Shown here: piece by piece, positions 7,761 to 49,734 of the stretch | Numbering within the stretch: the first letter of the stretch is position 1 | How the letters are laid out: the number at the start of each line of letters is the position of its first letter | NCBI GenBank assembly: GCA_016876035.1 | Contig: VGOE01000003.1 | Location: 1 to 62,933, forward strand | Direction of reading: 5' to 3' | From: Chloroflexota bacterium | GTDB taxonomy: Bacteria; Chloroflexota; Dehalococcoidia; UBA2247; RBG-13-53-26 | Length of the DNA: 62,933 nt | Position numbers and translations under genes: made by a program | The notes under the pieces: model-generated | Database searches by the model: none | Seen by the model: only the letters and a program-made list of their open reading frames with translations | What the model was told of the DNA's origin: nothing

Positions 7761-7808
7761 CCTACCTCGAGATGTTATAAATGTTTCTGCGCATTGAGCG
7801 GAATGGGT

Positions 7809-15858: not shown

Positions 15859-15868
15859 GGGGTGGGCA

Positions 15869-17344: not shown

Positions 17345-17347
17345 CCA

Positions 17348-18148
17348 TTGCAGCATCTCTTCTCTGTTTGGCCTGAGGTTGCCCAGCGCCTCAAAGCCGC
17401 ACGGGGTGTGCTACTTTTCTCTGACTACGATGGCACCCTTACGCCTATCGTGGATAGGCCGGAGCTGGCAGACTTGCCAGCAGAAACGAGGCGACTTCTG
17501 CGAGCTTTGGCTCACCGGCACCGCTTCACAGTTGGCATCATCAGCGGTCGGGCGCTATCGGATCTCAAGCACAGGGTCGGCATCGAGAGCATTGTCTATG
17601 CTGGCAACCACGGGCTGGAAATCGAGGGGCCGGGCATTAGCTTTATCAACCCGCTGGCGGAGGAGATGAAGCCTGTGTTGCGCCTGATACACCAGGCATT
17701 GAGCAAGGCGCTGGCTACGGTGAGAGGTTCTCTAGTTGAGGACAAGGGTCTTAGCTTGAGCGTGCACTACCGCCGGGTGGAGGAAAAGGAAGTGGAGAAA
17801 GCCAAAACCATCTTCGAACGCATCCTGCACGTACCTCGCCTATCGGGGATGATCAAGGTTACTTCGGGGAAAAAGGTTCACGAGGTAAGGCCAGCGGTAG
17901 ACTGGGATAAGGGCAAAGCCATAAAATTGCTTATGAGGAGATATGGCAAAGGGGGGAGGAGAAGCGGGCTGTTGCCTATCTATCTGGGTGATGACTTAAC
18001 CGACGAGGATGGCTTTAGAGCTATTGAACGCTACGGAGATGGCCTCACCGTATTCGTGGGTGGAGAGAATGACAGCACCGTGGCGCGCTATTTCTTAAGG
18101 TCACCACATGACGTGGAGAGATTCTTGAGCATGCTGCTTGATCTGTAA
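17348..18148 (+). CDS. otsB: Trehalose-6-phosphate phosphatase (HAD)
   Basis: FSDYDGTLTPI, IISGR, YAGNHG, GKKVHEVRP, WDKG.A, YLGDDLTDEDGF; TTG start. Confidence 0.92.
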   Translation: MQHLFSVWPEVAQRLKAARGVLLFSDYDGTLTPIVDRPELADLPAETRRLLRALAHRHRFTVGIISGRALSDLKHRVGIESIVYAGNHGLEIEGPGISFINPLAEEMKPVLRLIHQALSKALATVRGSLVEDKGLSLSVHYRRVEEKEVEKAKTIFERILHVPRLSGMIKVTSGKKVHEVRPAVDWDKGKAIKLLMRRYGKGGRRSGLLPIYLGDDLTDEDGFRAIERYGDGLTVFVGGENDSTVARYFLRSPHDVERFLSMLLDL

Positions 18149-18159
18149 AAAGGCAGAAA

Positions 18160-33283: not shown

Positions 33284-33436
33284 ATATGCACCTCCTCCTG
33301 TGATGATGACCACCCAGTGCTTCCGGCACCGGCAAGTCGATCAGTATCTTTTGGAACGCCTGAATAGCCAGCACTGTTGCCCGCGGATAGTGCTGTCTTA
33401 GCTATCCGCCGCCCATGTTACTGGTATCGGCCCCTA

Positions 33437-35738: not shown

Positions 35739-36920
35739 ATGAAAGACGCCGCAATTTCAAGTAAGGCACGAAAGAAAGCCAAGCAAAGGATTCTCCGCAC
35801 GAAACTGTGTGACATGCTGGAGATCGAGTACCCCATTATCCTTGCGGGCATGGGTGGCTATGCTGGGCCTACCCTCGCGGCCGCAGTATCCAACGCCGGC
35901 GGACTGGGTGTCCTCGGCTGCGGAGGGATGCCGATTGATATATTGGTGGGCATGATTAAGAAGACCAAAAGCCTGACCAATAAGCCTTTTGGTGTGGATG
36001 TGCTGATGCCCTTCGGAGCGCCCGCGCCCGGCACTGAGATCCCCACCATTGAATTACCTGAGAGGCAGGTTGCCTTCACAGAGCAGTTGAGGAAAGAATT
36101 CGGAATCCCCAAGCCAAAGCATTCCAGGCCAGCAGACTTCTTCGATGTGGACCTGATGCAAAAGACGGTCGAAGTATGCTTCGAGGAGCGTGTCCCCGTT
36201 TTTGTCGCCGGGCTTGGCAATCCAGGCTGGATGATACCGCGGGCTCATGCTCAAGGGATGAAGGTCCTCGCCTGTGTTGGCAACGTGAGAAGCGCTCGCC
36301 GCGTAGCGGAGGGCGGTGTGGATATCGTTGTCGCTGCGGGATACGAAGGCGGAGGACACACCGGCCGGATCGGCACTATGGCGCTCATCCCCCAGGTCAT
36401 AGATGCTGTCTACCCTACGCCCGTGGTGGCTGCCGGGGGCATAGCCGACGGTAGAGGGGTGGCTGCCGCTTTAGCGCTGGGAGCCTGTGGGGTATGGGTG
36501 GGCACTGCCTTCATAACCTCGCATGAAGCCCATGTCGACGCTATTGAGTTGGGCCTTATGGCTCAGTGGGAGGTTGATTACTGGAAGCAGAGAATCCTCG
36601 AATGTACTGAAGAGGATACGGTGGTGACCCGATCCTATTCTGGCAAAACGATGCGCAACCTGAAGAACAAGTGGATCCAGGCGTGGGAAAGGCCAGATGC
36701 ACCCCCCACGCTCCCTATGCCGCTACAGTTCATGCTCTGCTGGGATCTGATGGAAGGCGCCAGGGAAGCCAAAATCAAGGACATTCTGCTTTGGCCCACC
36801 GGGCAGATCGGAGGAATGATCAAGGAACTGAAGAGCGCCAAGCAGATCGTCGATGAGATGGTGGACGGGGCCACCAAGATTTTGCAGGAGACGCTTCCCG
36901 CTGAGGTGACCACAAAATAA
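35739..36920 (+). CDS. Nitronate monooxygenase / FabK-like FMN enzyme
   Basis: EYPIILAGMG, AAAVSNAGGLG, PFGVD, GYEGGGHTG, AAGGIADGRG..AALALGA.GVW.GT.F. Confidence 0.88.
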   Translation: MKDAAISSKARKKAKQRILRTKLCDMLEIEYPIILAGMGGYAGPTLAAAVSNAGGLGVLGCGGMPIDILVGMIKKTKSLTNKPFGVDVLMPFGAPAPGTEIPTIELPERQVAFTEQLRKEFGIPKPKHSRPADFFDVDLMQKTVEVCFEERVPVFVAGLGNPGWMIPRAHAQGMKVLACVGNVRSARRVAEGGVDIVVAAGYEGGGHTGRIGTMALIPQVIDAVYPTPVVAAGGIADGRGVAAALALGACGVWVGTAFITSHEAHVDAIELGLMAQWEVDYWKQRILECTEEDTVVTRSYSGKTMRNLKNKWIQAWERPDAPPTLPMPLQFMLCWDLMEGAREAKIKDILLWPTGQIGGMIKELKSAKQIVDEMVDGATKILQETLPAEVTTK

Positions 36921-37511
36921 CAGTACGCGCCTAAGGCTCAACTCAAGGGGAACCGGCAGTTTCCGGATGGGGAGGACCCTGAGAAATACATGTAAGACAA
37001 TTTGTGTTCAGCAAGCCATCTGCCTAACTCCTGTTCCTGGCTGTGCCTTGAAGATTTGCTGCGTTTCGCGGGAAGCCCGGATGGGATGTTTACTTGTCAT
37101 TGCGAGGCACAAAGTGATATTGTTATGACAGTGGACTTGGTCAGTTTCATTACAAAAAGCTACGCGCCAGATAGGCTAGATTGGTGATTGAGATAAAAGT
37201 GTTCTTTGTTGCATCTCTATTATTACTGATTATTATCAAGGTCGTCTCAGGCCACTGGGGGCGATCACTGTACTTGAAGAACCTATGGTGGCACGCTGTA
37301 TCGCCTTGCTATCGACCAGAAAATCCTTATAAAAACCTTATAATTGCCCCTTGCATTTTTACGCCACCTTTATGATTTTGGGGTTACAATAGGAGCGTTT
37401 GACCAGGTCGGGAGGCAGTGTGTTTCCTTGGCCAGGAGCCGAAAGCATGCCATTACACGTTAGGTACTACTCAAGCTGGCGCAAATAGTTATCACATGAG
37501 GAGAGGGTAAA

Positions 37512-39500
37512 GTGGATACAAGCCAATATGATGAGCCTAAGATCGGGGTTTACGTTTGTCATTGCGGCACCAATATCGCCGGCAGTGTTGATGTAGGACA
37601 GGTAACTGAATTTGCCCGAGGGCTGGAAGGGGTAGTAGTATCCCGAGATTATAGTTTTGTGTGCTCTGATCCAGGGCAGAAGCTGATCCGGGAGGACATC
37701 CTTCAGCTAGGAATCAATCGGGTTGTGGTGGTAGCCTGTTCCCCTCGTCTACACGAGCAGACATTCCGCGGTGTATTGAAGGAGAGCGGGCTTAACCCCT
37801 ATATGCTGCAGCAAGCTAATATCAGAGAGCAGTGTTCTTGGCTTCATGAGCCAGGGGAGTCGGCCACTGAGAAGGCGAAGAGGTTGGTTAGAGCAGCAGT
37901 GAAGCGAGTTGCGCTGCATCACCCTTTGGAGCAGAGAGCAGTGCCAATTTTCCCCGCTACTCTGGTGGTCGGAGGCGGTATTGCTGGTATTCAGGCTGCT
38001 CTAGAGATCGCCAATTCCAACCACCTGGTGTATCTAGTGGAAAGGGAGTCCAGCATTGGAGGGCATATGGCGCAGTTCGACAAGACCTTCCCCACTCTGG
38101 ACTGCGCCGCGTGTATCCTCACCCCTAAAATGACTGACGTTGCCCGTCATCCTTACATCAGGCTGTTAACCTACAGCGAGGTGGTTGACATCTCAGGGTA
38201 TATAGGCAACTTCACCGTCAAGATCAAGCGTAAGGCGCGCTACGTGAATGAGGAAAAATGCACCGGCTGTGGTATTTGCCAGGAGAAGTGTCCGTGGACG
38301 ACATTAAGTGAGTTCGAGGTCGGCTTGAGTTTGAGGAAGGTCATTTATACCACTTCACCTCAAGCAGTGCCCAACATACCTGTTATTGATCGTGAGCGTT
38401 GTGTTTACTTCTCCAAGGGAACCTGCCGCGCCTGTGAACGCTTCTGTGAACCAAAAGCTATCAATTTCAAGCAGGAAGATATGTTGATAGAGCTGCAAGT
38501 TGGCTCTGTTATAGTGGCTACCGGATACGATACCTTTGAGCCTACCCGCGTCACGCAGTACGGCTATGGTAACTACCCCAACCTTTTCACCAGCTTGGAG
38601 TTCGAGCGGATGTGCAGCCCGTCCGGGCCAACCGGCGGTAAATTGAAACTAGCAGACGGTCGGGAACCACAGAGCATGGCCATTATCCATTGTGTAGGCA
38701 GCCGAGATAAGAATTTCAATGCCTACTGTTCTCAGATATGCTGTATGCATGCCCTGAAGTATTCCCACCTGTTCAAGGAGAAGACCGGTGGCGATGTCTA
38801 TCAAATGTATATTGATATGCGTTGCACGGGGAAAGGGTATGAAGAATTCTATGATCGGGTTCAGAAAGAGGGAGTCAACTTCGTCAGGGGCAAGGTAGCC
38901 AATGTCACTGACCGTGCCCTTGCACCTGAGGAGGAAGGAAAACTGATTGTTACCTGTGAGGATACCCTGTTGGGCAACATCGTCCGTGTCCCGGTAGATA
39001 TGGTGGTATTGTGCATAGCTGTGGAGCCGCGCAGGAATGCTGAGCAGCTAGCCCAAATATTTCGTTTGGGACGGGGCCAGGACGGGTTCTTCCTAGAGCG
39101 ACACCCGAAATTGGATCCGGTGGCTACCATGTTCGAGGGTGTATTTGTAGCGGGGTGTTGCCAGGGTCCTAAAGATATACCTCATACAGTGGCTCAAGCC
39201 TCAGCGGCCGCTGCTCGGGCTCTGGCTATGATTGCCCGAGGCAAAGTGGAAATTGAAGCAGTGACTGCTTCTGTTGATGAAAAGCGGTGCTCAGGATGCC
39301 GGTTGTGCAACGCACTCTGCCCATATGAAGCTGTCTCCTTTGATGAAGATGCCAAAGTGTCGCGGGTGTCTCAGGTTCTTTGTAAGGGGTGTGGTACATG
39401 TGCTGCGGCTTGCCCGAGCAACGCTATCTCCGTCCAGAACTTCACTCCAGCCCAGATCACAGCAGAAATTGAGGGACTGCTAGCCACGGTGAACGTCTAG
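37512..39500 (+). CDS. hdrA: Heterodisulfide reductase subunit A
   Basis: CHCGTNIAG, ACSPRLHE, NIREQCSW, GGGIAG, DKTFPTLDCAACIL, inserted 2x[4Fe-4S], SLEFER, HCVGSR...CS..CC, C-terminal 2x[4Fe-4S]. Confidence 0.95.
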   Translation: MDTSQYDEPKIGVYVCHCGTNIAGSVDVGQVTEFARGLEGVVVSRDYSFVCSDPGQKLIREDILQLGINRVVVVACSPRLHEQTFRGVLKESGLNPYMLQQANIREQCSWLHEPGESATEKAKRLVRAAVKRVALHHPLEQRAVPIFPATLVVGGGIAGIQAALEIANSNHLVYLVERESSIGGHMAQFDKTFPTLDCAACILTPKMTDVARHPYIRLLTYSEVVDISGYIGNFTVKIKRKARYVNEEKCTGCGICQEKCPWTTLSEFEVGLSLRKVIYTTSPQAVPNIPVIDRERCVYFSKGTCRACERFCEPKAINFKQEDMLIELQVGSVIVATGYDTFEPTRVTQYGYGNYPNLFTSLEFERMCSPSGPTGGKLKLADGREPQSMAIIHCVGSRDKNFNAYCSQICCMHALKYSHLFKEKTGGDVYQMYIDMRCTGKGYEEFYDRVQKEGVNFVRGKVANVTDRALAPEEEGKLIVTCEDTLLGNIVRVPVDMVVLCIAVEPRRNAEQLAQIFRLGRGQDGFFLERHPKLDPVATMFEGVFVAGCCQGPKDIPHTVAQASAAAARALAMIARGKVEIEAVTASVDEKRCSGCRLCNALCPYEAVSFDEDAKVSRVSQVLCKGCGTCAAACPSNAISVQNFTPAQITAEIEGLLATVNV

Positions 39501-39527
39501 CTGTGTCAGGAAGAAGGAGGAGGAAAA

Positions 39528-39980
39528 GTGGCTGAGTTTGAACCCAAGATAGTTGCCTTTTTATGCAACTGGTGCTCCTATGCCGGAGCAGATTTGGCAG
39601 GGACTTCGCGCATGAAGTGCCTGCCTAATGTGATTTCTATTCGACTTATGTGCAGCGGAGGACTGGACCCTACTTACGTTTTGAAGGCATTCAAGGAAGG
39701 GGCTGACGGGGTCCTGGTTTGCGGTTGCAACCCTGGTGATTGCCACTACCTTGAAGGGAACTACAAAGCATTGCGGCGTGTCTCCTTGCTGCAGAGAATG
39801 CTGCCACACTTCGGCGTCGAGCCGCGGCGTCTCCAATTGCACTGGGTGTGCGCTTCCTGTGGCGATGAATTTGTTACTGTCGTTAACGAAATGACTAATG
39901 AATTGAAGAGGTTGGGACCAATCAAGCGCGAGAGTTGGATGCCAGCAGCAGAGGAACATCATGCAATGGCACCGGGCTAA
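39528..39980 (+). CDS. mvhD: MvhD-type [2Fe-2S] subunit (copy 1, extra cysteines)
   Basis: FEPKIVAFLCNWCSYAGAD, MCSG, GADGVLV.GC.PGDCHY..GN. Confidence 0.92.
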   Translation: MAEFEPKIVAFLCNWCSYAGADLAGTSRMKCLPNVISIRLMCSGGLDPTYVLKAFKEGADGVLVCGCNPGDCHYLEGNYKALRRVSLLQRMLPHFGVEPRRLQLHWVCASCGDEFVTVVNEMTNELKRLGPIKRESWMPAAEEHHAMAPG

Positions 39981-40155
39981 GGCATAGTTTTGGGACCTGA
40001 TTGGCTGCTTCATGGATCGTTTCTCTAAGCTGGCTAAATTGTGATCGGCAGGTTATGGTAGAATTAATACAGAGGGAGTTGGGAAGCTCAGATTCGAAGC
40101 TCGAATCAAGCCCTTGAAAATGAGTAGTCTCAGTTGACCGAGGAGGTGAAGGAAA

Positions 40156-40821
40156 ATGACAAAGTGGCAGTGTGTGCAATGTGGTTACTTCTTCGACGGA
40201 ACGAGACCGCCGGAACCATGCCCTGGCTGTAAGTCAGCTTGCAGCTACACCGATGTCACCTGCTATCGCCCTGAATGTGGTGGCCCCGTGAATGCCGACC
40301 CTATGCTTCTGGGCATGATTACCAAGCGTACTGGATTAGCCGCCCCTCTACGTCCCTCACAGACGGCTGCCCCGCAGGAGGTAGTCTATGCAGAGAAAGT
40401 GAGCAAGGAAATCCTATTTCAGGGGCTGAGCGAAAAGGAGATACAGCAGGTATTGGCCACTGGTGAAATTAAGACCTATGAACCTGGCGATGTCGTGTTT
40501 AAGGAAGGCGCTGAGTCAGTGCATATCTACATTGTCGAGCAAGGGAAACTGGCCGTGCTGGCTCCAGAAGGGAAAACCGCCTATCTAGCTTCAGACGGAG
40601 ATGTTCTTGGTTGGTCGAGTTTGATGCTGCCCTACAAGCGGACTGCTTCAGCCAACGCCCTGGAAAAAAGCCGTGTTGTTGTCATCGACCACACCAAACT
40701 GCAAGACTTTTGCGCCCAGAACCCATCTATAGGCTACAAGATCACGCAAAACGTCGGGCGGATTATGGCTGCCAGGATGAGGACTGCCAAAGCGATGTCA
40801 GTGGATTTGGTCTACGGCTAA
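40156..40821 (+). CDS. Rubredoxin-like Cys domain fused to cyclic-nucleotide-binding domain
   Basis: WQCVQCGY...PPEPCPGC...DVTCYRPECG, then LFQGLSE.E, Y..G.VVF.EG, G.VLGWSSL...RTASA; no HTH. Confidence 0.75.
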   Translation: MTKWQCVQCGYFFDGTRPPEPCPGCKSACSYTDVTCYRPECGGPVNADPMLLGMITKRTGLAAPLRPSQTAAPQEVVYAEKVSKEILFQGLSEKEIQQVLATGEIKTYEPGDVVFKEGAESVHIYIVEQGKLAVLAPEGKTAYLASDGDVLGWSSLMLPYKRTASANALEKSRVVVIDHTKLQDFCAQNPSIGYKITQNVGRIMAARMRTAKAMSVDLVYG

Positions 40822-41004
40822 GGCAGCAATGAGAATTCAGTTGTCGGCTTTTGGAAGAGGTGGAAAATTTTTAGCCTCTTTTCGAGTTGGCGCATCTCCA
40901 GTCGGCGCATTCAATGAATGACTTCATGACATGCTATGGCACTCCGGTGGGGTTTACAACTGCCCACGTTTTGTGGGTACTTTCTTTGAAGGGAGCGTAG
41001 GAGT

Positions 41005-42153
41005 ATGAATGCAGTCGTGCCCTATAAGGAAGCGGTGGACGCTGTAACAGAGGCAGGCGGTGAAGCGCTGAAGCAATGCTATCAGTGCGGTCTGTGTACT
41101 GGCATCTGCCCCTGGAATCTGGTTAGAAGCTTCCCCACCCGCAAGCTAATCCATCAGGCACAGCTCGGCGTAGTCGACTTCGAAGGTGAGGACACCTGGA
41201 TATGTGCCACCTGCCGGGCCTGCGTGGTCCGCTGCCCACGCGAGGTAGCCATCATCGATATTATGAAAGCCCTGCGTGGAGTGATAGTGGAGATGGGAGC
41301 TGGCTACTGTCCCGAGTCACTCCGGGTCACATTGAAAAACATCGCCGGTGCCGGTAACCCGCTGGGAGAAGCTCCCGAAGATAGAACGGCTTGGACAAGG
41401 GACCTGAAGGTGAAGACCTTTGCCAAGGGCACCAATGTACTGTATTTTTCCTGCTGTATCCCGGCCTATGATCCTAACATCAGAAGGGTAGCTCGTGCCA
41501 CAGCCAACATCCTTAACAAAGCAGGTGTTGACTTCGGCATCCTGGGTTCCAAGGAAAGCTGCTGTGGCGAAAGCGTGCGCAAGGCGGGAAACGAAAGCCT
41601 TTTCCAGAAGCTGGCGCAGAGCAATATCAGTGCTTTTGTCGATAACGATGTCAATAGAATCGTGGTGAGCTCGCCTCACTGCTATCATTCTTTCAAAAAC
41701 GAATATCCTGCGCTGGGGGGCAAGTTTGAAGTAATGCACTTCACTCAATATCTGGCACAGCTTATCCGTGATGGTAGACTCAAGCTAACCAAAGAAGTCA
41801 AAGCAAAGGTCACCTATCATGATCCATGTTATCTTGGGCGTCACAACGATGTGTACGACGAGCCGAGAGAGGTCTTAAGAAGCATCCCCGGACTGGAGCT
41901 GGTAGAGATGGCCGACCATCGTGAAAATAGCTTTTGTTGTGGTGGTGGTGGCGGAAGGATTTGGATGGAGACCAAGAAGGGAGAGAGGCTTTCCGACCTC
42001 AGGTTGGAGCAGGCTGAAGCGACGGGGGCGAGTATATTGGTGGCTGCCTGTCCCTACTGCATAGCTAATTTTGAGGATAGCGTATTAACAATGGACAAGG
42101 GCGCTGCTATTCAGGTTAAGGACATCTCGGAATTGGTTCAAGAGGCAGTGTAA
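41005..42153 (+). CDS. HdrD/GlpC-like Fe-S protein (2x[4Fe-4S] + two CCG domains)
   Basis: CYQCGLCTGICP, CATCRACVVRCP, ESCCGE, SPHC, YHDPCYLGR, CCGGGGG, ACPYC. Confidence 0.9.
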   Translation: MNAVVPYKEAVDAVTEAGGEALKQCYQCGLCTGICPWNLVRSFPTRKLIHQAQLGVVDFEGEDTWICATCRACVVRCPREVAIIDIMKALRGVIVEMGAGYCPESLRVTLKNIAGAGNPLGEAPEDRTAWTRDLKVKTFAKGTNVLYFSCCIPAYDPNIRRVARATANILNKAGVDFGILGSKESCCGESVRKAGNESLFQKLAQSNISAFVDNDVNRIVVSSPHCYHSFKNEYPALGGKFEVMHFTQYLAQLIRDGRLKLTKEVKAKVTYHDPCYLGRHNDVYDEPREVLRSIPGLELVEMADHRENSFCCGGGGGRIWMETKKGERLSDLRLEQAEATGASILVAACPYCIANFEDSVLTMDKGAAIQVKDISELVQEAV

Positions 42154-42268
42154 GCTGTCTCTTGGGTCAGATCGATATTACCAGTTGCAGCTACCACGGG
42201 GAATGCGAGACAAACCTTAGCAAAGACCGCAAAACGGTTTAGCCTATTTGGCGGAATGCGTATTATGC

Positions 42269-42676
42269 ATGTCTAAGAGAAAGATCGCTCTGATGGACTT
42301 CGACCAACTGATTGGAAGGTTGAGGTTCAACCTGGAGAGTGCCAGGAGCGCGATAGAACATGGGGACAGCCGAGAACCCGAGGATCGGGAAGGTCTCCGA
42401 GACTATGTTAACAAGATCGAAGAGAGTATCCAAAAGCTCGAGCTGGCAAAGCAGCTATCACAAAAAGGCAGGCTGAATGGAGAAGATGTAGGAAGGGCGA
42501 TGAGTATTACCTGCTTCGGAAACATCGGCTACTGCTGCGGGCTGAAGAAAGCATGTGTTTGGAGAGATGCTTGCCGCCAAGCCTTGGGGATAGATGATGA
42601 TACTTACACTGAAGTCAAAGAGGCAGTAATTCAGGACATTCTCGAGCGTGCTAATCGGATGGACAGCGGAACTTAG
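42269..42676 (+). CDS. Hypothetical protein with Cys-rich motif resembling one repeat of methanogenesis marker domain 9
   Basis: TCFGNIGYCCGLKKACVWRDACRQALGIDDDTYTEVK; N-terminal coiled-coil-like region. Confidence 0.6.
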   Translation: MSKRKIALMDFDQLIGRLRFNLESARSAIEHGDSREPEDREGLRDYVNKIEESIQKLELAKQLSQKGRLNGEDVGRAMSITCFGNIGYCCGLKKACVWRDACRQALGIDDDTYTEVKEAVIQDILERANRMDSGT

Positions 42677-42850
42677 CACTTAGTCTGTTCAAGCCTTCGG
42701 ATACGGCCGTAGTCATAGTTAGTCAATGGCTAAAGGGAGCCCGGGCCGTAAGCGTTTATGGATCATTTGCTAGACTATCTGATTGTGAGGCAAGAGATCA
42801 ACAAACTCGACGTTGACACTCATGTTGAAGAGTGACTGGAGGTTAGAGAA

Positions 42851-44641
42851 GTGTGGATAACTGAAGATAAAGGGGTTGCCCGTGTTGAAGAGGCAGTAAA
42901 GCAATTTCTGCCACCTTGCCAGATCAAGTGTCCTATCAATGAAGATATCCAGCGCACAAATGTGCTCATCTCACTCCTTCCGGAGGATCTGGACTCGGCA
43001 AGGGAGGGGATTATCCAGATAAGCGATCACCTCTATGACAAGAACCCTTTCTTCAACATCTGCGGTTACATTTGCGGATTGTGTGAACTTGAGTGCAATT
43101 ACAAGATCAAGGGAGGTGCAGTCAGAAGAAGACTCCTCAAGAGATTTTTGTCTGATGTCTACACCTATCATCTCCCTGAGAAAAATGAACTGAATATCGT
43201 TAAGGACAAGGAGAATGTGGCTGTCATAGGCGGTGGGCCGGGTGGCTTGATGTGCGCCTATATCTTGAGCAAGAAGGGGTATAGGGTAACCATCTTCGAG
43301 GCGTCCAACCGCCTGGGTGGAGCGCTGTGGCTGATACCGAGCTATCGTTTACCCGAAGCTGTTTTGCAGACAACGCTGAACAATCTGATCAGGATTGCCG
43401 CTCTGGATGTTAGGTTTGGTGCAAAGCTGGGTGAGGGCAGGCTGACGATAGATAGGCTTAGAAACGAAGGTTACAGGGCAATTTTTCTGGCAAAAGGGAC
43501 ACCTTACCCCAGAGTGCTGACGTTCGATGGAGAGACAGTACCAGGGCAGGATCTTTCTGGGGTAATGTATGGGCATACTCTTCTTTACGAGGTTAGCCAC
43601 GGCAACATCGGGAGGGACTATTTTGAGGGGAAAAAACTGATAGTCATTGGCGGTGGGAACGTAGCCTTTGACGTTGCCAGAACGGCAAAGCGATTGGGAG
43701 GCGATGTGACTATCGTCTGTCTGGAATCTGAGGACAAGACCTCCAAGGACGGTATTCCTGCTGACGATGAAGAAATTACCGCGGCGTGGGAAGAGGGGTT
43801 AAGGATCGTTTATTCCCGTGGTGTACAGAAGATTATCGGGCAACATGGGAGATTCAAGGGCCTTGTCTGTCCGAGGTGTGTCGGTGTGTTTGATGAGACC
43901 GGATTCAACCCCAAGTTTGATTGCAGCGACTGCATTGATCTTGAAGGGGACACGCTCGTAATCACGGTAGGACAGATACCCGATAGGGCCTTTCTAAATA
44001 GAGAAGGCCTTCTGGATGAGAAAGGCCGACTTGTGGTAGACCCCATCACACTGCAGAGCTTGAGGAGAGGCTTCGTGTTCATAGGCGGGGATGTGAGGAG
44101 GATCGGCTTTATGGTCGAAGCCATGAAGGAAGGCATGGTGGCTGCCGACTCCATAGAGAGGTATTTGAGAGGCCTGGATATGAGGGAAGGCAGGAAGAGG
44201 GAATATGAAGGCTATGGGATTCCTTTGAGGAAATCGTACAAGCCTGAGGTGGAAGTGGCCTGGATACCACCAGAAAAGAGGATGCACTTCCAACTGTTTG
44301 AGAAGGGCCTTACGTTGAAAGAGGCGATTGAAGAGGCCAAGAGGTGCCTCACTTGCGGCCCCTGTGTCTCGTGTAAGGCCTGTATATCGATTGGTTTCGA
44401 GAAGTCACTGTATGCTGTTGAAGTAGACGAGCAAAGATGTAGTGGTTGCGGCATATGCGTATATGCATGCAATTATGATTCAGCCAGGCTAAGAATGGTT
44501 GAAGGGAAGACCCTCTCTACCACCGATATGTTCAGATGCAAGTCGTGTGGTATGTGTGTCGTGGCCTGCCCTTCACATGCCAGGAAGCTGGTTGACGACG
44601 ATACTGAGCGAAGGATCGAAAGTGCGTTGGCAATTCTATGA
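42851..44641 (+). CDS. GltD/NfnB/SudA-like FAD oxidoreductase with C-terminal 2x[4Fe-4S] ferredoxin
   Basis: PPCQIKCP, ICGYICGLCELEC, IGGGPGG, IPSYRLP, IGGGNVAFD, EAKRCLTC, CSGCGICVYAC, CKSCGMCVVACP. Confidence 0.85.
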   Translation: MWITEDKGVARVEEAVKQFLPPCQIKCPINEDIQRTNVLISLLPEDLDSAREGIIQISDHLYDKNPFFNICGYICGLCELECNYKIKGGAVRRRLLKRFLSDVYTYHLPEKNELNIVKDKENVAVIGGGPGGLMCAYILSKKGYRVTIFEASNRLGGALWLIPSYRLPEAVLQTTLNNLIRIAALDVRFGAKLGEGRLTIDRLRNEGYRAIFLAKGTPYPRVLTFDGETVPGQDLSGVMYGHTLLYEVSHGNIGRDYFEGKKLIVIGGGNVAFDVARTAKRLGGDVTIVCLESEDKTSKDGIPADDEEITAAWEEGLRIVYSRGVQKIIGQHGRFKGLVCPRCVGVFDETGFNPKFDCSDCIDLEGDTLVITVGQIPDRAFLNREGLLDEKGRLVVDPITLQSLRRGFVFIGGDVRRIGFMVEAMKEGMVAADSIERYLRGLDMREGRKREYEGYGIPLRKSYKPEVEVAWIPPEKRMHFQLFEKGLTLKEAIEEAKRCLTCGPCVSCKACISIGFEKSLYAVEVDEQRCSGCGICVYACNYDSARLRMVEGKTLSTTDMFRCKSCGMCVVACPSHARKLVDDDTERRIESALAIL

Positions 44642-44656
44642 ATCAAGAGGGGGCAA

Positions 44657-45076
44657 ATGGGGCATTATGAACCTAAGATAGTCTGTTTCTCGTGCAAGTT
44701 CGGCTGGGGATACCTGGGCGATGATGCTGCGCTCTCCCGCCAGATAAAGAACTGGATTCCTATAATTTGCTCCGGGAAGATTGATAGTACTCACATTCTG
44801 GACGCTTTCAAGCGGGGGGCTGACGGTGTTCTTGTACTCGGTTGTCCCGAAGGCAATTGCCATTACCAGGACGGCAATTTCGAGGCCAGGAAGAGGGTCT
44901 ATCTTCTCCAAAAGATGCTTGAGCCCTATGGAATAGAAAAGGAGAGGCTCCGCATAGTACTGTCAACGGATCCTGGTGGTACGCAGATACCGCAGCTTAT
45001 TAAGGAGATGAGTGACAGAATTGAAAAGCTTGGCCCACTGAAGAAGATAAAGGGCAAAGCTGCTCTAGTGGTCTAA
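44657..45076 (+). CDS. mvhD: MvhD-type [2Fe-2S] subunit (copy 2, divergent)
   Basis: YEPKIVCFSC, ICSGKID, GADGVLVLGCPEGNCHY.DGN, GIEKERL. Confidence 0.85.
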   Translation: MGHYEPKIVCFSCKFGWGYLGDDAALSRQIKNWIPIICSGKIDSTHILDAFKRGADGVLVLGCPEGNCHYQDGNFEARKRVYLLQKMLEPYGIEKERLRIVLSTDPGGTQIPQLIKEMSDRIEKLGPLKKIKGKAALVV

Positions 45077-45094
45077 GGGGGAAAGGAAACGAAG

Positions 45095-46072
45095 ATGGCA
45101 GAGAAACCGAAGGTTGCTATTTGCTGGCTTGGGGGCTGTGGCGGCTGCGATGAAGCGGTGGTCGATATCAATGAGGTAATCCTGCGTGTTGTAGACGCCG
45201 TTGACCTGATACTCTGGCCAGTGGCGCTGGATTTCAAGTACCATCACATTGAGGCCATGAAAGATGGTGAGATCGCCTTGAGTGTGATCAATGGACATGT
45301 CAGGAATTCAGATCACAAAGAGATAGCGGAATTACTTCGCAGAAAGTCCCAGTTGGTACTCGCTTTTGGGGCTTGTGCCTGTTTTGGAGGAACACCTGGG
45401 CTAGCAAACTTGACCACCAAAGAGGACATCTTTAACTGGGTGTATCGTGATGCTCCAACCGTGGTTAACCCAAAAGGAAACCACCCTCAACCCAAAGTCA
45501 GTGTTGACGGGAAAGAATTAACGTTACCAGAATTCTACGAACACGTCTATGCTCTGAATCAGGTGATTGATGTCGACTACTACCTCCCGGGCTGCCCACC
45601 GCCTCCTGATCTAGTAGTCAATGCTATAACTGCTGTCCTGGAAGCCAAGCTGCCCCCCAAGGGTTCGACTTTGGCACCGCATAAGGCTTTGTGTGATACC
45701 TGCCCGCGAAACAAGACAAAACCGGCTAAGATTGCTATAAGTGACATCAAGAGGATTCATGAGGTTGAGGCTGACCCTAATTCCTGCTTTTTGGTGCAGG
45801 GGATACTCTGCCTGGGGCCCGCAACGCGCGCAGGCTGTGGGGAGGCTTGCATAGACATAAACATCCCCTGTCGTGGGTGTTTTGGCCCCGTGGAGGGAGT
45901 GGCTGATGCTGGGGCAAAGTTTGCTTCTGCCTTGGCGTCGATCATCGACGTAGAGGATGAAGAAGAGGTAAAGAAGAGTATCGACACGATTGACGATGTT
46001 ATCGGCTACTTCTATCGTTTTTCCTTACCCTCTTCCATTTTGGGCAAGAAAGATCTCAAGAAGACTATTTGA
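45095..46072 (+). CDS. mvhG: Group 3c [NiFe]-hydrogenase small subunit
   Basis: WLGGCGGC, GACA.FGG, YLPGCPP, CDTC, CF...G.LCLGPATR.GC...C.....PCRGCFGP. Confidence 0.92.
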   Translation: MAEKPKVAICWLGGCGGCDEAVVDINEVILRVVDAVDLILWPVALDFKYHHIEAMKDGEIALSVINGHVRNSDHKEIAELLRRKSQLVLAFGACACFGGTPGLANLTTKEDIFNWVYRDAPTVVNPKGNHPQPKVSVDGKELTLPEFYEHVYALNQVIDVDYYLPGCPPPPDLVVNAITAVLEAKLPPKGSTLAPHKALCDTCPRNKTKPAKIAISDIKRIHEVEADPNSCFLVQGILCLGPATRAGCGEACIDINIPCRGCFGPVEGVADAGAKFASALASIIDVEDEEEVKKSIDTIDDVIGYFYRFSLPSSILGKKDLKKTI

Positions 46073-46084
46073 GGAGCGCTGAAA

Positions 46085-47548
46085 ATGACCAGAAAAGTGA
46101 CCATAAACCCGATTACCAGGCTTGAGGGTCATGGTAAGATCGAAGTCTTCCTCGATGACAAGGGTGGGGTGAGAGATGCCTACTTTCAGGTGGTAGAGTT
46201 GAGGGGCTTTGAAAGGTTCTGCCTGGGAAGGCCAGCGGAGGAGATGCCGAGGATTGTTCCGAATATATGTGGCGTTTGCCCTACGCCGCATAACATGGCA
46301 TCCACAAAGGCACTGGATGACCTGTACGGCGTTGAGCCCACGCCGACTGCCAAGCTAATCAGGCAACTCCATTACAATGCCTTCTACGTGGAAGACCATT
46401 ACATCCACTTCTTCTTCCTGGCTGCACCCGATTTCGTGGTTGGACCGGACGCTGACCCTGCTGAGAGGAACATCGTCGGCGTAATCCAAAAGGTCGGGTT
46501 GGAGATCGGCGGCAAGGTGATCGATATCCGAAAAAGGTGCCGAGATATAATCAGGCTCATTGCCAGTAAGCCATGCCATCCCGAAGGTGGATTGCCCGGC
46601 GGAGTTTCGAGGGGAATCACTGCCGAGGAACGGGAATGGATACGCAAGACTGCTGACGATTCTGTGGAATTTGCCCAGTTTGCCCTGAAGCTGTTCAAGA
46701 ATGTTGTCCTTGATAACAAGCACTACCTCGATCTGGTACTTAGTGATGCCTACAAGCTACAGACCTACTACATGAGTCTTGTCGATGAGAATAAGAAGGT
46801 GAATCTCTATGAGGGTAAGTTAAGAGTCGTGGATCCTCGCGGAAAGGAACACGCCCTTTTTGATCCGCATGACTACATTGATTACATAGGTGAATGGGTA
46901 GAGCCCTGGACGTATATAAGGTTGACTCATCTGAGAAAGGTAGGCTGGAGCGGTTTGATTGAGGGTGATAAGACATCGCTGTACCGTGTTGGCCCTCTTG
47001 CCCGACTCAATGTAGCTGAAGGTATGGCCACGCCCCTAGCCCAGAAGGAGTATGAGCAGATGCATAAGACGCTGGGAGGCAGACCGAGTCACCATACCTT
47101 GGCTTTCCACTGGGCCAGACTGATCGAGGCACTTCAGGCTGCTGAAGATATGCAGAAAATTGCTAATGACCCCATGCTGACTGGCAAGGACCTGCGTAAT
47201 TTGAATTACAGGTTGAAGAAAGTTGGCGTCGGTTGCGTTGAGGCGGCTCGGGGAACATTGATCCATCATTATGAGACGGATGACAATGGAATAATAACCA
47301 GGGTGAACCTCATAGTGGCCACCCAGCACAATGCAGCCCCTATGTGTCTATCGGTGAAAAAGGCGGCTATGGAGTTCGTCAAGGACCACAAGGTGAAAGA
47401 GGGTATGCTGAACATGGTGGAAATGGCCTTCAGGCCTTACGACCCGTGTCTTGCCTGTGCGACGCATGCGCTTCCGGGTGAAATGCCCCTGAACATCAAT
47501 ATAAGGGACAAAGACGGCAGCATAGTCCAAACACTCAAGAGGCCGTAG
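46085..47548 (+). CDS. mvhA: Group 3c [NiFe]-hydrogenase large subunit
   Basis: PITRLEGH, ICGVCP..H, EA.RG.L.HHY, YDPCLACATH plus a cleavable C-terminal tail. Confidence 0.92.
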   Translation: MTRKVTINPITRLEGHGKIEVFLDDKGGVRDAYFQVVELRGFERFCLGRPAEEMPRIVPNICGVCPTPHNMASTKALDDLYGVEPTPTAKLIRQLHYNAFYVEDHYIHFFFLAAPDFVVGPDADPAERNIVGVIQKVGLEIGGKVIDIRKRCRDIIRLIASKPCHPEGGLPGGVSRGITAEEREWIRKTADDSVEFAQFALKLFKNVVLDNKHYLDLVLSDAYKLQTYYMSLVDENKKVNLYEGKLRVVDPRGKEHALFDPHDYIDYIGEWVEPWTYIRLTHLRKVGWSGLIEGDKTSLYRVGPLARLNVAEGMATPLAQKEYEQMHKTLGGRPSHHTLAFHWARLIEALQAAEDMQKIANDPMLTGKDLRNLNYRLKKVGVGCVEAARGTLIHHYETDDNGIITRVNLIVATQHNAAPMCLSVKKAAMEFVKDHKVKEGMLNMVEMAFRPYDPCLACATHALPGEMPLNINIRDKDGSIVQTLKRP

Positions 47549-47891
47549 CTCAGAGTATCTTCTGCCCTGACACCACATTCTAGCCCATCTTGGGTGGGAT
47601 AGTAGGGAGCGCCCCATCCACCTGGGATAACGCTAGGCAGTTGGACGTTTTGCCTCACATTCCTCCATGGTAATTCTATTACCTTCAGGAAGTTTCTTAT
47701 GAATCGTCTGAGTGCACAGCCTTGAACTGTTGTGCAATGCGTTATAATATTAGATTGTGGTAGGTGGGGGGTTGCATAGTATGGCTAAGAGAGGACGCCG
47801 ATTAGACGAGAACAGAAATCAAGGAAGTTGGAGGGAGCTGTTTACAAGATATTTGGAACCCCCCCTTTGGCTATCGATGTTTTAGGCACAA

Positions 47892-48113
47892 ATGAAATAC
47901 ACTGTCATAATCGAGAAAGGTAGTGAATCGGGCTACGTGGCTTATGCTCCTGCCCTGAAGGGCTGCATCTCCCAGGGTGCAACTAGGGAAGAAACCCTGA
48001 GGAACATAAAGGAAGCCATTGAAGCCTATGTCGAAGCTCTGCTTGAGGATGGGCTGCCTGTCCCTACAGAGGTAGGCAAACATACTGTGGAGCTTGAGGT
48101 TCCCACTAGGTGA
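47892..48113 (+). CDS. hicB: HicB-family antitoxin (short, no DNA-binding domain)
   Basis: YVAYAPALKGCISQG.TREE.L.NIKEAI..Y.E.L; 73 aa. Confidence 0.9.
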   Translation: MKYTVIIEKGSESGYVAYAPALKGCISQGATREETLRNIKEAIEAYVEALLEDGLPVPTEVGKHTVELEVPTR

Positions 48114-48343
48114 CCAAGCTACCTCGGGGATTGTCTGGCAAAGAAGTGATCAAGGTGCTAGAGAGGGCGGGGTTCTATATCAAAAGGCGCAAGGGAAGCC
48201 ATGTTGTAATGCGCAGAGACAATCCTTTTACTCAGGTCGTAGTGCCAGACCATAATAATAAGAGCCTTGATACCGGAACGCTAGCGTGGATACTCGATGG
48301 GGCTAACCTATCAGTCCAAGAGTTTACAAAACTTATTAACTAG
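48110..48343 (+). CDS. hicA: HicA-family toxin (mRNA interferase)
   Basis: LSGKEVIK.L...GF...RRKGSH, VVVPDH, GTL..IL; GTGA overlap with hicB. Confidence 0.9.
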   Translation: MTKLPRGLSGKEVIKVLERAGFYIKRRKGSHVVMRRDNPFTQVVVPDHNNKSLDTGTLAWILDGANLSVQEFTKLIN

Positions 48344-48366
48344 TCCTTGCAGTTGCGCAAGGTAGC

Positions 48367-49734
48367 ATGGTTGGGGCCACTTCTTGCTTTGAGTGCTGTC
48401 CGGACGCCACAAAGGTCAGTCGTTTCCGTTTCTCGCTGCCACCATCTGTGATGCGCTCTTTGTTCATCAACCCAGTCGTCCATGTAAGACAAGCCCACAG
48501 GACTAGACGGGCGGCAATCGCCGCCATAGCTGCCTTCGGGGCTATTCTGGCTGGTGTGTTCCTGATGTCGGCTGTCCATGATGCGGCACTTAGTGCGGTA
48601 CTTGGCACGGTGGCACTAGCTTGTCTTGGAGCTGTCATTGGCCCTTTTACGGGAGGCAATGAAGCAGAATGGATTAGGTATCTAGAGACGTTAGTGAGGA
48701 CTGAGAGAGACAGGCTACTGGCAATACTGAACACTATGGGAGAGGGAGTGGCTATCATTGGGCCAGACTACAAGATACGCTTTATGAATCCAAGCATGTT
48801 AAGAGAATTCGGCGACGGTGTCGGTAGCTATTGTTATAAGCATCTCCATGGCTTCGATGAGCCATGCGATGAGATGTGCAGGTTACGGGAGGTCATAATT
48901 GGTTCAACTGAGAGGTCGGAATATCACTTTCCAGACGGGAGAATATATGAAGTAGTATCGTCGCCCTTTGCTGATTCCGACCAGGTGTCTTGTATGCTGG
49001 CCACTTTCAGAAACATCACCCATCAGAAGCTGGTCGAGCTTGAGCTTGTCAAACTTAACCAGCTTAAATCAGAACTTCTATCCAATGTCTCTCACGAACT
49101 CCGATCACCATTGACCTCGATAAAGGGGATCATCAGCAGCCTGTTGCAAGAAGACATAGGGTGGGATAACGAGTCACGGAAGATGCTTTTGATTGGAATG
49201 AGCGAGGAGACGGATAGGTTGGCGAGCCTGGTTACCAATTTGCTCAACATGAGCAAATTGGATGCCGGTGTTTGGGGGCCAGAGAGGGATCGCTGTAGTG
49301 TCCCGGAGATTGTCACTGAGACGCTGGAACGCCAGAAGTGGGTTAGCAAGGATCATATATTTGAAACCGAGTTCGCCCCGGACTTACCAGAAGTCTTCGC
49401 CGACTCTAACCAGATAAAGCAAGTTTTGATCAACTTGCTGGAGAACGCGGTGGCTTACTCCGAGGAAGGAACTAAGATAGTGGTCGAGGCAAAGAGGATC
49501 AATAACGAAGTGGAGGTGACCGTATCTGACCAGGGTGTTGGAATCCCGCCGGGGGAGCTGGAGAAGATATTTGACAAGTTCTATCGGGGTACACAGAAGC
49601 GTCGGCGTCCTGGGGGTACCGGGCTGGGCCTGGCTATTGGCAGAGCCATTGTTCTGACCCATGGCGGGCGCATATGGGCCGAAAGTGAAATCGGCCGCGG
49701 CTCCACCTTCCATTTCACTTTGCCGGCTATCTAG
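48367..49734 (+). CDS. Membrane PAS-domain sensor histidine kinase (orphan); start uncertain
   Basis: Two TM segments, PAS-like region, SHELRSPL, QVL.NLLENA, DQG.GI, GTGLGL. Confidence 0.88.
   Translation: MVGATSCFECCPDATKVSRFRFSLPPSVMRSLFINPVVHVRQAHRTRRAAIAAIAAFGAILAGVFLMSAVHDAALSAVLGTVALACLGAVIGPFTGGNEAEWIRYLETLVRTERDRLLAILNTMGEGVAIIGPDYKIRFMNPSMLREFGDGVGSYCYKHLHGFDEPCDEMCRLREVIIGSTERSEYHFPDGRIYEVVSSPFADSDQVSCMLATFRNITHQKLVELELVKLNQLKSELLSNVSHELRSPLTSIKGIISSLLQEDIGWDNESRKMLLIGMSEETDRLASLVTNLLNMSKLDAGVWGPERDRCSVPEIVTETLERQKWVSKDHIFETEFAPDLPEVFADSNQIKQVLINLLENAVAYSEEGTKIVVEAKRINNEVEVTVSDQGVGIPPGELEKIFDKFYRGTQKRRRPGGTGLGLAIGRAIVLTHGGRIWAESEIGRGSTFHFTLPAI

Follow-up and report, generated by a model that had tools for sequence, protein, structure and literature searches.

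Gene Organization and Conservation of the Operon

A 62,933-nt stretch of contig VGOE01000003.1 from Dehalococcoidia (Chloroflexota), referred to below as the window, carries on its (+) strand, at positions 42851-47548, a four-gene operon whose products (GltDFd, MvhD2, MvhG and MvhA) probably form a reversible, non-bifurcating H2:NAD+ oxidoreductase (NAD, nicotinamide adenine dinucleotide). The operon is best explained as encoding a soluble, cytoplasmic [NiFe] hydrogenase of the Mvh type, with an NAD(H)-binding Fe-S flavoprotein, and not heterodisulfide reductase, as the partner through which electrons leave. Genes were called using a listing of open reading frames (ORFs) together with Pfam and NCBIfam profile searches. 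A first-pass annotation of the same DNA had proposed that a GltD/NfnB-like protein is followed here by mvhD2, mvhG and mvhA, and all four elements are present:

42851-44641 (+): GltDFd, a 596-aa GltD/NfnB-like Fe-S flavoprotein and predicted diaphorase subunit (GTG start; Pfam, NCBIfam and solved-structure matches)
44657-45076 (+): MvhD2, a 139-aa subunit of the FlpD family, predicted to link MvhG with the tail of the flavoprotein through a [2Fe-2S] cluster (PF02662 FlpD, 107 bits)
45095-46072 (+): MvhG, [NiFe]-hydrogenase small subunit of 325 aa, belonging to the long Mvh/Vhu kind with three clusters (Oxidored_q6; VhuG model, 213 bits)
46085-47548 (+): MvhA, a 487-aa [NiFe]-hydrogenase large subunit (NiFeSe_Hases; VhuA model, 400 bits)

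The intergenic gaps inside the operon are 12-18 bp long (15 bp between the GltDFd and MvhD2 genes). The closest relatives of the window are metagenome-assembled genomes (MAGs) of Dehalococcoidia (Chloroflexota). To survey the gene order, window proteins were mapped by tblastn onto 48 related loci from one-genome-per-species contigs, almost all of them from Dehalococcoidia, plus one from a 'delta proteobacterium' MAG (63% identity). Where enough sequence was available, the flavoprotein gene was directly followed by genes for MvhD (43 of 44 loci), MvhG (42 of 42) and MvhA (37 of 37), an order far above chance expectation. Genes for HdrA or HdrCB-like proteins were found upstream of the operon in 3 of the 31 loci that have at least 5 kb of upstream sequence. 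We therefore conclude that the conserved unit is the four-gene operon, without Hdr. The survey thus supports the proposed wiring of the hydrogenase, via MvhD, to a flavoprotein of the GltD/NfnB type and not to HdrA, and natural gene fusions, described below, point the same way.

Hydrogenase Subunits

MvhA contains the motifs RLEGH (at residue 12), C62-x2-C65 and DPC455-x2-C458-x2-H, the last followed by a 26-residue C-terminal extension that is predicted to be cleavable; the Ni-Fe ligands, assigned from these motifs, are C62/C65 and C455/C458. MvhG has 14 Cys residues, and its residues 1-319 cover positions 1-284 of the 286 in the VhuG model. The best NCBIfam model for MvhA was VhuA, with a score of 400 bits versus a cut-off of 800, and the VhuG score of MvhG was likewise below its cut-off (213 versus 450). 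Among solved structures, MvhA matched the Bfu-type large subunit 7t2r_D marginally first (1.4e-116), followed by MvhA 5odc_F (4.4e-113) and 5xf9_D (5.5e-97). Two group 3c traits, a long small subunit of the three-cluster type and a separate MvhD (FlpD), are present, but the functional hallmark of this group, an HdrABC partner, is not found in the gene context, where the conserved partner is GltDFd. Judged by its subunit types, the predicted hydrogenase appears to be an Mvh (group 3c-like) enzyme.

Domains, Clusters and Fold of the Flavoprotein

Pfam searches with GltDFd returned Fer4_20 (residues 21-104; 27.4 bits, cut-off 25.8), Pyr_redox_2 (residues 122-428; 101 bits) and a Fer4_7/dicluster domain (residues 529-577). 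Dinucleotide motifs are located at residues 127 (GGGPGG, Rossmann fold for flavin adenine dinucleotide, FAD) and 267 (GGGNVA, NAD(H) Rossmann fold). The best matches among proteins of solved structure were NfnA of the Bfu-type NfnABC complex (9n5u_A; E 9e-53, residues 20-442) and NfnL of P. furiosus NfnI (5jca_L). Residue conservation was followed in 43 orthologs and in a 119-sequence alignment (A3) that includes distant relatives, and an AlphaFold2 model built on the latter was confident (pLDDT 90.6, pTM 0.88). When the model was compared with solved structures by Foldseek, NfnA/StnC came out on top, matching over the whole length (TMq 0.71-0.75; NfnA, 0.75), while the core matched NfnL (5jca_L; TMt 0.78, root-mean-square deviation 2.9 Å), 4ylf_B (TMt 0.77), GltD (6s6s_E; TMt 0.74) and DPD. 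The modelled protein has the NfnB/NfnL-GltD fold, in which a predicted alpha-helical domain for two [4Fe-4S] clusters is combined with FAD and NAD(P)H Rossmann domains. Four features of its gene are used in what follows:

43133-43147 (+): LLKRF motif with K97, aligned with the non-Cys ligand of the FAD-proximal [4Fe-4S] cluster
43715-43738 (+): VCLESEDK at the end of beta-2 of the nucleotide-binding fold, with Glu292 in place of Arg-Arg, then a 5-residue insert
44261-44383 (+): residues 471-511, the permuted counterpart of the NfnB N-terminus, with 'RCLTC' (R498-C499-x2-C502) and then C505-x2-C508-x2-C511 at its end
44438-44572 (+): two CxxCxxCxxxC(P) motifs, C530-C540 and C563-C573, which make up the HdrA-type 2x[4Fe-4S] domain (alignments and ortholog conservation)

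The N-terminal Fe-S domain of GltDFd contains only six Cys (C23, C27, C71, C75, C78 and C82). The canonical N-terminal CxxCx4Cx3CP motif is absent and the protein begins at the third Cys of the domain (PPC23xxxC27P). Residues 471-512, on the other hand, align to the N-terminus of T. maritima NfnB (4ylf_B 13-57, E 8.8e-5), and in subunits of the NfnA/StnC type the RCxxC segment has the same position, behind the flavin domains. Since 'RCxxC' is missing at the N-terminus and the segment that carries it is found at residues 471-512, we conclude that GltDFd is circularly permuted with respect to NfnB/GltD. The N-terminal GltD/NfnB Fe-S motifs of the first-pass annotation are thus correct as to the domain but not as to the canonical first 'RCxxC', which is relocated to residues 471-502. 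Two ligands of the FAD-proximal cluster are expected to come from the permuted segment. Directly behind it, GPC505VSC508 looks like a vestigial copy of the next two Cys, a footprint expected from circular permutation by duplication.

All six N-terminal Cys, C499/502/505/508/511 and the Cys of the two CxxCxxCxxxC motifs are invariant in the 43 orthologs, which gives the C-terminal region 13 conserved Cys; the 2x[4Fe-4S] domain that had been proposed there is present, but the region has more than the eight Cys that such a domain implies. The larger alignment shows no variation at K97, C75, C78, C82, R498, C499, C502 or any of the eight ferredoxin Cys, and conservation of 90% or more at C23, C27, C71 and E292. 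The counterparts of K97 are Lys165 in T. sibiricus NfnA and a Glu in NfnL; in those proteins this residue is the non-Cys ligand of the cluster next to the FAD (PMC12018979), a role that K97 probably has in GltDFd too. Sixteen ligands are universally conserved (C23, C27, C75, C78, C82, K97, C499, C502 and the eight ferredoxin Cys), a number that would fit four [4Fe-4S] clusters.

The Ferredoxin Tail, MvhD2 and Natural Fusions

The best solved match of the last 60 residues of GltDFd was the C-terminal ferredoxin domain of HdrA (5odc_A 575-632). The same domain is 36% identical, over 75 residues and up to the last residue (E 1e-10), to the C-terminus of an HdrA encoded elsewhere in the window. 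The NCBIfam HdrA2 model matched GltDFd at residues 520-582 only (38 bits), and the hdrA_Methbact model matched only the dinucleotide motif at 116-162. The HdrA-like tail noticed at first pass is thus supported. In the solved Mvh-Hdr complex, the [2Fe-2S] cluster of MvhD lies within electron-transfer distance of a [4Fe-4S] cluster of HdrA (PMC5861303). The HdrA-type tail of GltDFd is predicted to be the docking and electron-entry site for MvhD2.

MvhD2 scores above the PF02662 cut-off. It is 42% identical to MvhD1, a second MvhD encoded in the window next to HdrA, and four Cys are common to both proteins. A search that covered 1.84 billion representative proteins revealed natural fusions of about 690-740 aa, in which a GltD-type flavoprotein, the ferredoxin tail and FlpD form one polypeptide. 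The domain order of the fusions is that of the window, where it is split over two adjacent genes, and identity with fused homologs rises to 44% (P0123). In the fusions, the tail and MvhD match positions ~565-773 of the HdrA2 model as a single unit. An AlphaFold2 model of one fusion (P0432; pLDDT 89.3, pTM 0.89) was disordered only in a linker, and a Foldseek search with it gave no additional match. MvhD2 resembles the MvhD part of four hydrogenase-linked fusions, with identities of 49-53% to three and of 38% to the fourth (P0123), and has a CxxCKFGWxY motif and a 5-residue deletion in common with them.

In four loci, L056, L061 (Syntrophorhabdus), L062 (Deltaproteobacteria) and L063, the gene for a fusion of about 700-740 aa is directly followed by genes for the hydrogenase small and large subunits, and often by HycI; no hdr genes were found near these fused three-gene versions. 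The position of flavoprotein-MvhD fusions right before hydrogenase genes is strong evidence that MvhD2 works on the flavoprotein tail, and supports the docking of MvhD on the tail that had been proposed at first pass. Compared with the window MvhA, the large subunits of L056 and L063 show 67-71% identity and those of L061 and L062 53-54%; the latter two are closer (66-68%) to an MvhA linked to an MvhD1-type subunit. Monophyly of the GltD-linked hydrogenases is therefore not supported, which indicates that the modules have been exchanged.

In five other loci (L050, L052, L053, L054 and L060; the anammox genus Brocadia, Dehalococcoidia and an archaeal-looking contig), a fusion gene lies beside MetV (DUF5981) and MetF genes. 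GltD-Fd-MvhD beside MetVF looks like a distinct type of NAD(P)H-dependent methylene-tetrahydrofolate (methylene-THF) reductase. The archaeal-looking contig also holds genes for carbon monoxide dehydrogenase/acetyl-CoA synthase, and in L054 a gene for a histidine kinase that binds cyclic nucleotides (cNMP) is found between metV and metF. Many relatives carry the JGI label 'formate dehydrogenase (NADP+) beta subunit'. The gene context suggests that GltD-Fd-MvhD may exchange electrons between NAD(P)H and catalytic subunits encoded separately, and points to the ferredoxin tail plus MvhD as a portable connector, by which one diaphorase would be joined to hydrogenase, methylene-THF reductase and, probably, formate dehydrogenase (Fdh).

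The first-pass annotation also held that the two MvhD adaptors select the partner. The data agree with this in part only. In its favor, the MvhD2 signature is shared with the fusions and MvhD1-type copies accompany HdrA. A strict rule linking MvhD subtype to partner is, however, broken by L057 (601-2775), where a receiver-fused variant of the flavoprotein is followed by an MvhD of the MvhD1 type and a small subunit. A second complete mvhDGA set in some genomes (L032) and the low frequency of upstream hdr genes (3 of 31 loci) also speak against such selection.

The Nucleotide-Binding Loop

The second dinucleotide loop of GltDFd (GGGNVAFDVARTAKRLGGDVTIVCLESEDKTSKDG) differs from the corresponding loops of the NADPH-binding NfnA and NfnL (VVYR-RSK and ILYRRTRK, respectively). 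After beta-2 it reads V-C-L-E-S-E-D-K-T-S-K-D-G, compared to V-Y-R-R-S/T in NfnA and NfnL; VCLESEDK replaces VYRR/LYRR, and the Arg pair (YRR) that binds the 2'-phosphate of NADPH is absent. The GGGNVAxD motif of the second Rossmann fold is kept, and pLDDT in this region exceeds 90. 'CLE' together with 'DKxSKDG' is present in nearly all hydrogenase-linked relatives, whether split or fused, while MetVF-linked relatives have 'CLE' without the insert, and 'YRR' occurs in minor clades, namely the P0123 group and P0133. The classical determinant of NAD(H) binding is an acidic residue at this point, where beta-2 ends. The conserved VCLE and insert in place of YRR argue for NAD(H), and the Glu292 loop is predicted to determine a preference for it. 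With this loop conserved, the H2:NAD(P)+ activity suggested at first pass is the best-supported reading of the operon.

Proposed Mechanism and Alternatives

From the gene content, domain homology, gene order, fusions, ligand residues and predicted fold, we infer a cofactor content, an order of electron transfer, a choice of NAD over NADP, reversibility and a lack of bifurcation as follows. H2 would be split at the Ni-Fe site of MvhA, and electrons would pass through the three [4Fe-4S] clusters of MvhG to the [2Fe-2S] cluster of MvhD2, then through the two [4Fe-4S] clusters of the HdrA-type tail and the two of the NfnL-type domain to FAD, which would reduce NAD+ by hydride transfer. The net reaction would be H2 + NAD+ = NADH + H+, reversible and without bifurcation, and its direction (uptake of H2, or NADH-driven release of H2 when H2 is low) would be set by H2 pressure. 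In NfnABC, the NfnA module is a linear mid-potential wire (NADPH-FAD-A7-A6-A3) and not the site of bifurcation (PMC12018979). A linear wire in GltDFd is supported by the fusions, the conserved synteny and the homology of tail and MvhD to HdrA-MvhD, and also by the full-length match to NfnA, the single flavin and the reuse of the module with MetVF and, probably, with Fdh.

Several points weigh against a linear H2:NAD+ enzyme. The full-text literature searched contained no enzymology of a GltD-type diaphorase with MvhDGA, the nearest items in it being mentions of S. fumaroxidans Mvh1 and the hypothesis on type III HdrA. C505, C508 and C511, which are specific to a part of the family that includes the hydrogenase-linked subfamily and are absent from MetVF-linked relatives, could hold a further, fifth cluster or give electrons a second path. 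The choice of NAD over NADP is drawn from a sequence rule, the acidic residue at the end of beta-2, and the loop carries an unusual 5-residue insert. HdrA-MvhD1-HdrCB, which has no hydrogenase of its own, is encoded 3 kb upstream, possibly leaving room for a shared or larger complex. Finally, bifurcation in NfnSL takes place at its NfnL-type FAD (PMC12018979), so the fold by itself is compatible with bifurcation.

The foremost alternative is an electron-bifurcating or confurcating hydrogenase, in which an NfnL-type FAD would couple H2 with NAD+ and ferredoxin, or would run in reverse, producing H2 from NADH and reduced ferredoxin; such an enzyme, which would be the [NiFe] counterpart of HydABC on a different flavoprotein, is in our judgment unlikely. 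The potential of H2 lies between those of NAD+ and ferredoxin, and C505/508/511 could form another cluster and with it a second branch. The NfnL fold of GltDFd (TMt 0.78 to 5jca_L), whose FAD bifurcates in NfnSL, and the invariant non-Cys ligand K97 on the FAD-proximal cluster also count in its favor; a K165E substitution in NfnA nearly abolished bifurcating activity, although the cluster is remote from the bifurcation site (PMC12018979). Against bifurcation, there is one flavin only, which doubles as the NAD site: profile searches found no second flavin subunit among the four genes of the operon, and neither a ferredoxin-docking element nor a second branch was identified there. In the closest full-length solved relatives, NfnA and StnC, the module is not the bifurcating site, and with MetVF and, probably, Fdh the same module serves as a simple NAD(P)H diaphorase. 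Moreover, a neighboring Bfu-type NiFe HydABCSL is already encoded in related genomes, where another enzyme that bifurcates would be redundant. The 'new bifurcating hydrogenase' of the first-pass annotation found no positive evidence, given the single flavin and a nearest structure, NfnA, that is a non-bifurcating NADPH input wire. A specific form of the idea is a new bifurcating or confurcating [NiFe] type in which H2, NAD+ and ferredoxin are coupled at the permuted NfnL-type FAD, with the Lys-ligated cluster and an extra C505/C508/C511 cluster at its sides; it is slightly less likely still. Were it true, bifurcation would have been solved by a fifth architecture, one that is widespread among Dehalococcoidia and syntrophic Desulfobacterota.

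A second alternative involves the genes upstream of the operon:

37512-39500 (+): HdrA, 662 aa, HdrA2-like (NCBIfam HdrA2 model, 834 bits)
39528-39980 (+): MvhD1, 150 aa (FlpD, 172 bits; HdrA2 model, 167 bits)
40156-40821 (+): cNMP-binding protein with a rubredoxin-like N-terminus (profile matches)
41005-42153 (+): HdrC/HdrB-fusion protein with two CCG domains (profile matches)
42248-42676 (+): 142-aa protein with a Cys-rich C-terminus, CFGNIGYCCGLKKACVWRDAC (weak methanogenesis-marker-9 match; no Pfam match)

MvhGA might alternate between MvhD2-GltDFd and MvhD1-HdrA-HdrCB, or all of these proteins might form one complex. The reaction would then be an HdrA-based bifurcation in which NADH and/or H2 donate electrons to a disulfide and to ferredoxin, the scheme put forward for HdrL, Moorella HdrA and type III HdrA. 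We consider this doubtful, and more so than bifurcation within the operon. HdrA-MvhD1, the HdrC/B fusion and the GltDFd operon are encoded on one strand within 10 kb, with 2.9 kb between the end of MvhD1 and the start of GltDFd, and no second hydrogenase was found in the window. Hdr genes also adjoin the operon in L011, L013, L030 and L043; among a few close relatives only, L013 and L030 have counterparts of both the HdrCB-like and the 142-aa genes upstream of GltDFd, and L011 and L043 have the HdrCB-like gene. In methanococci, MvhAG and FdhAB are reported to compete for Hdr-bound MvhD (PMC6085437), and an HdrA with inserted GltD domains, encoded beside mvhADG, has been hypothesized to be NADH-linked (PMC12054007). 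On the other side, just 3 of 31 loci have hdr genes upstream, and those of L011 and L043 lie on the opposite strand; the gaps between the genes upstream of the operon are 94-183 bp, versus 12-18 bp within it; and the fused versions (L056, L061-L063) occur without nearby Hdr genes. L032 (JAUWQP010000001.1), whose flavoprotein is 71% identical to that of the window, has a separate mvhDGA set of the MvhD1 type 2 kb downstream of its GltDFd operon. Its contig happens to be as long as the window (62,933 bp), but blastn gave no match between the two, which are distinct sequences. Sharing of MvhGA with HdrA-MvhD1-HdrCB is possible in this genome; it is not a conserved feature. A promoter and terminator scan of positions 36900-48500 (11 and 8 sites, respectively, versus 9.9 and 9.8 expected from shuffled sequences) was uninformative on transcription units.

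It is highly improbable that GltDFd does not use NAD(P) in vivo, its loop disabling binding and its FAD reducing another acceptor, e.g., polysulfide, or relaying electrons to ferredoxin only: the loop does differ from that of every characterized relative (Arg-Arg lost, 5-residue insert), enzymes of the GltD family such as SudA are promiscuous toward acceptors in vitro, and a receiver fusion (P0121) and a conserved downstream two-component pair hint at a regulatory or sensing side, but the second Rossmann fold, including GGGNVAxD, is conserved (pLDDT >90), an acidic residue at this loop position is an NAD(H) signature, and MetVF-linked relatives share CLE without the insert, which fits NADH-dependent methylene-THF reduction.

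Comparison with Known Systems

The linear H2:NAD+ reading was set against known complexes. In the MvhADG-HdrABC complex of methanogens (5ODC), the subunit types MvhA, MvhG and MvhD are those of the window operon, and in both systems an HdrA-type ferredoxin domain stands right before MvhD. GltDFd, however, has neither the HdrA flavin domain nor its inserted ferredoxin domain, and the operon has no HdrB/C. With a flavin domain of the NfnL/GltD type and an NAD(H) site in GltDFd, heterodisulfide chemistry is not implied and bifurcation is not expected.

NfnA of NfnABC and StnC of StnABC (9N5U, 9BOV, 8OH5) provided the best full-length match to GltDFd in both sequence and structure, and have in common with it the permuted RCxxC and the position of a Lys, not Glu, as non-Cys ligand. 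In NfnA, a NuoG/Fdh-like domain follows, and the protein associates with NfnBC (NuoF/NuoE-like), the place of bifurcation, whereas GltDFd ends in an HdrA-type tail that would meet MvhD and hydrogenase; NfnA also binds NADPH via a YRR-type loop, in contrast to the VCLE loop of GltDFd.

Three identities were considered and rejected. The operon is not an HdrL/HdrA or type III HdrA system, since the HdrA (thioredoxin-reductase-like) flavin domain with its inserted ferredoxin domain is absent from GltDFd. It is not of the Hyl/Bfu (HydABC/HydABCSL) type either: there is no NuoF/NuoE-like subunit, and no such Pfam domains were found in the annotated ORFs of the window. When HydC, HydB and HydA of a Bfu-type cluster (L016) were compared with the window by tblastn, only the GltD-like part, MvhG and MvhA were matched. 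NfnAB/NfnSL can be set aside because no PyrK-like (FAD plus [2Fe-2S]) domains occur among the ten annotated genes at 35739-47548. A match to a characterized complex of the HdrL or Hyl type, which the first-pass annotation had named as a possible outcome fatal to its proposal, was therefore not found.

HdrL and type III HdrA-like proteins nevertheless resemble GltDFd in combining a GltD-type NAD(P)H module with HdrA-type Fe-S domains followed by MvhD (PMC2702500, PMC9430772, PMC12054007). The type III HdrA gene cluster includes mvhADG and has been hypothesized to be NADH-linked (PMC12054007). These proteins keep the HdrA flavin domain, have at least two flavins and are thought to bifurcate, whereas GltDFd has a GltD-type flavin and the HdrA tail only.

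Hydrogenases of groups 3d (Hox/SH) and 3b (sulfhydrogenase) and the NiFe-HydABCSL enzyme (7T2R) have the same predicted overall reaction, H2 with NAD(P), and a similar large subunit. They differ from the window operon in their diaphorases, which are NuoF/NuoE/NuoG-like, with flavin mononucleotide, or AsrAB-like instead of GltD-type, in the lack of MvhD, and in their short small subunits (178 aa in the Bfu-type cluster of L016, versus 325 aa for MvhG). DsrL of dissimilatory sulfur metabolism also resembles GltDFd in plan, being an NAD(P)H diaphorase with an NfnB/GltD-like core and a C-terminal 2x[4Fe-4S] domain; its partner, unlike that of GltDFd, is DsrAB, and MvhD is not involved. The NCBIfam matches listed for the window included no DsrL model.

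The NADP-dependent Fdh of Moorella thermoacetica consists of an alpha subunit and a 76-kDa beta subunit encoded by sfrB2 (PMC13040438). It resembles the window operon in that a GltD-type NAD(P)H flavoprotein acts as diaphorase for a low-potential catalytic subunit, and differs in its catalytic partner, which is a molybdo-/tungstopterin Fdh and not a hydrogenase, and in its use of NADP. The CO2/formate and H+/H2 couples have nearly equal potentials. Going by JGI naming, the Moorella beta subunit presumably contains a FlpD domain.

Mvh1 of Syntrophobacter fumaroxidans (Sfum_3535-3537) has been described as having a subunit with FAD- and NAD+-binding domains (PMC5947623). By this description alone, it is like the fused three-gene version in the MAGs of Syntrophorhabdus and Deltaproteobacteria, and is presumably fused rather than split. 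No enzymology of S. fumaroxidans Mvh1 was found; it appears only in proteome and transcriptome papers. A cluster of the GltD-MvhDGA kind may thus already be within published annotation, and to call the window operon an undescribed system, as was done at first pass, overstates the case (PMC5947623).

Other Genes in the Window

Downstream of mvhA, the following features were found:

47892-48113: HicB-like antitoxin ORF between mvhA and the histidine kinase gene, overlapping the HicA-like ORF
48110-48343: HicA/YcfA-type toxin-like ORF between mvhA and the histidine kinase gene
48367-49734 (+): sensor histidine kinase, possible regulator (PAS, HisKA and HATPase_c domains)

Among 28 related loci with enough downstream sequence, 21 have a histidine kinase gene ~190 bp past the end of mvhA, and a gene for a receiver-only response regulator is present behind the operon in 22. 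The window kinase is only 30% identical to a representative of the related loci, and no receiver protein or hydrogenase maturation protease was found in the window; HycI-like genes do occur in relatives. Two relatives (P0121, 724 aa; P0430, 824 aa) have a receiver domain on the same polypeptide as the flavoprotein. The kinase/receiver pair and the receiver fusions suggest phosphorylation-dependent control of the diaphorase of the hydrogenase. Since the kinase starts ~190 bp past mvhA in most related loci, the HicB/HicA-like pair may have been inserted.

In many related genomes, a Bfu-type NiFe HydABCSL cluster, absent from the window, adjoins the GltDFd-mvhDGA operon (L016, positions 63-7807; also L019 and L021; on the opposite strand in L020, L024, L025, L028, L032, L038, L042 and L044). 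In L016, it codes for a NuoE-like protein, a 1064-aa fusion of NuoF-like and GltD-like parts, a NuoG/molybdopterin-like protein, a 178-aa small subunit and a 488-aa large subunit.

Two possible consumers of NAD(P)H are encoded elsewhere in the window: an Fe-S flavoprotein (Oxidored_FMN plus Pyr_redox_2) similar to Old Yellow Enzyme and 2,4-dienoyl-CoA reductase (31328-33313, -), and an NMO/FabK-like enoyl reductase (35739-36920, +). Genes at 927-5892 (Hydantoinase_A, Hydantoinase_B and an acetone carboxylase gamma subunit) resemble those of acetone carboxylase or a hydantoinase-type ATP-dependent carboxylase. A compatible-solute cluster at 14524-20750 codes for an MscS-like channel, trehalose-6-phosphate synthase (GT20), trehalose phosphatase, an MscS-DUF5752 fusion and a TreT-like trehalose synthase.

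Significance

The operon represents a widespread, probably NAD(P)-linked variant of soluble [NiFe] hydrogenase that is assembled from known modules. In genomes and metagenomes, group 3c [NiFe] hydrogenases are routinely read as Hdr-linked and electron-bifurcating, yet the conserved partner of many Mvh-type enzymes in Dehalococcoidia, Syntrophorhabdus, Deltaproteobacteria and others is a flavoprotein of the NAD(H) type. If the H2:NAD+ reading is true, calls of function made from hydrogenase class alone would be wrong for this clade. S. fumaroxidans is in culture, and if the sequence of its Mvh1 confirms the likeness, the enzymology would be accessible there. For the organisms themselves, the enzyme would be a direct valve between H2 and NADH, which would bear on the re-oxidation of NADH at low H2 in syntrophy and on the H2-driven supply of NADH in subsurface Chloroflexota.

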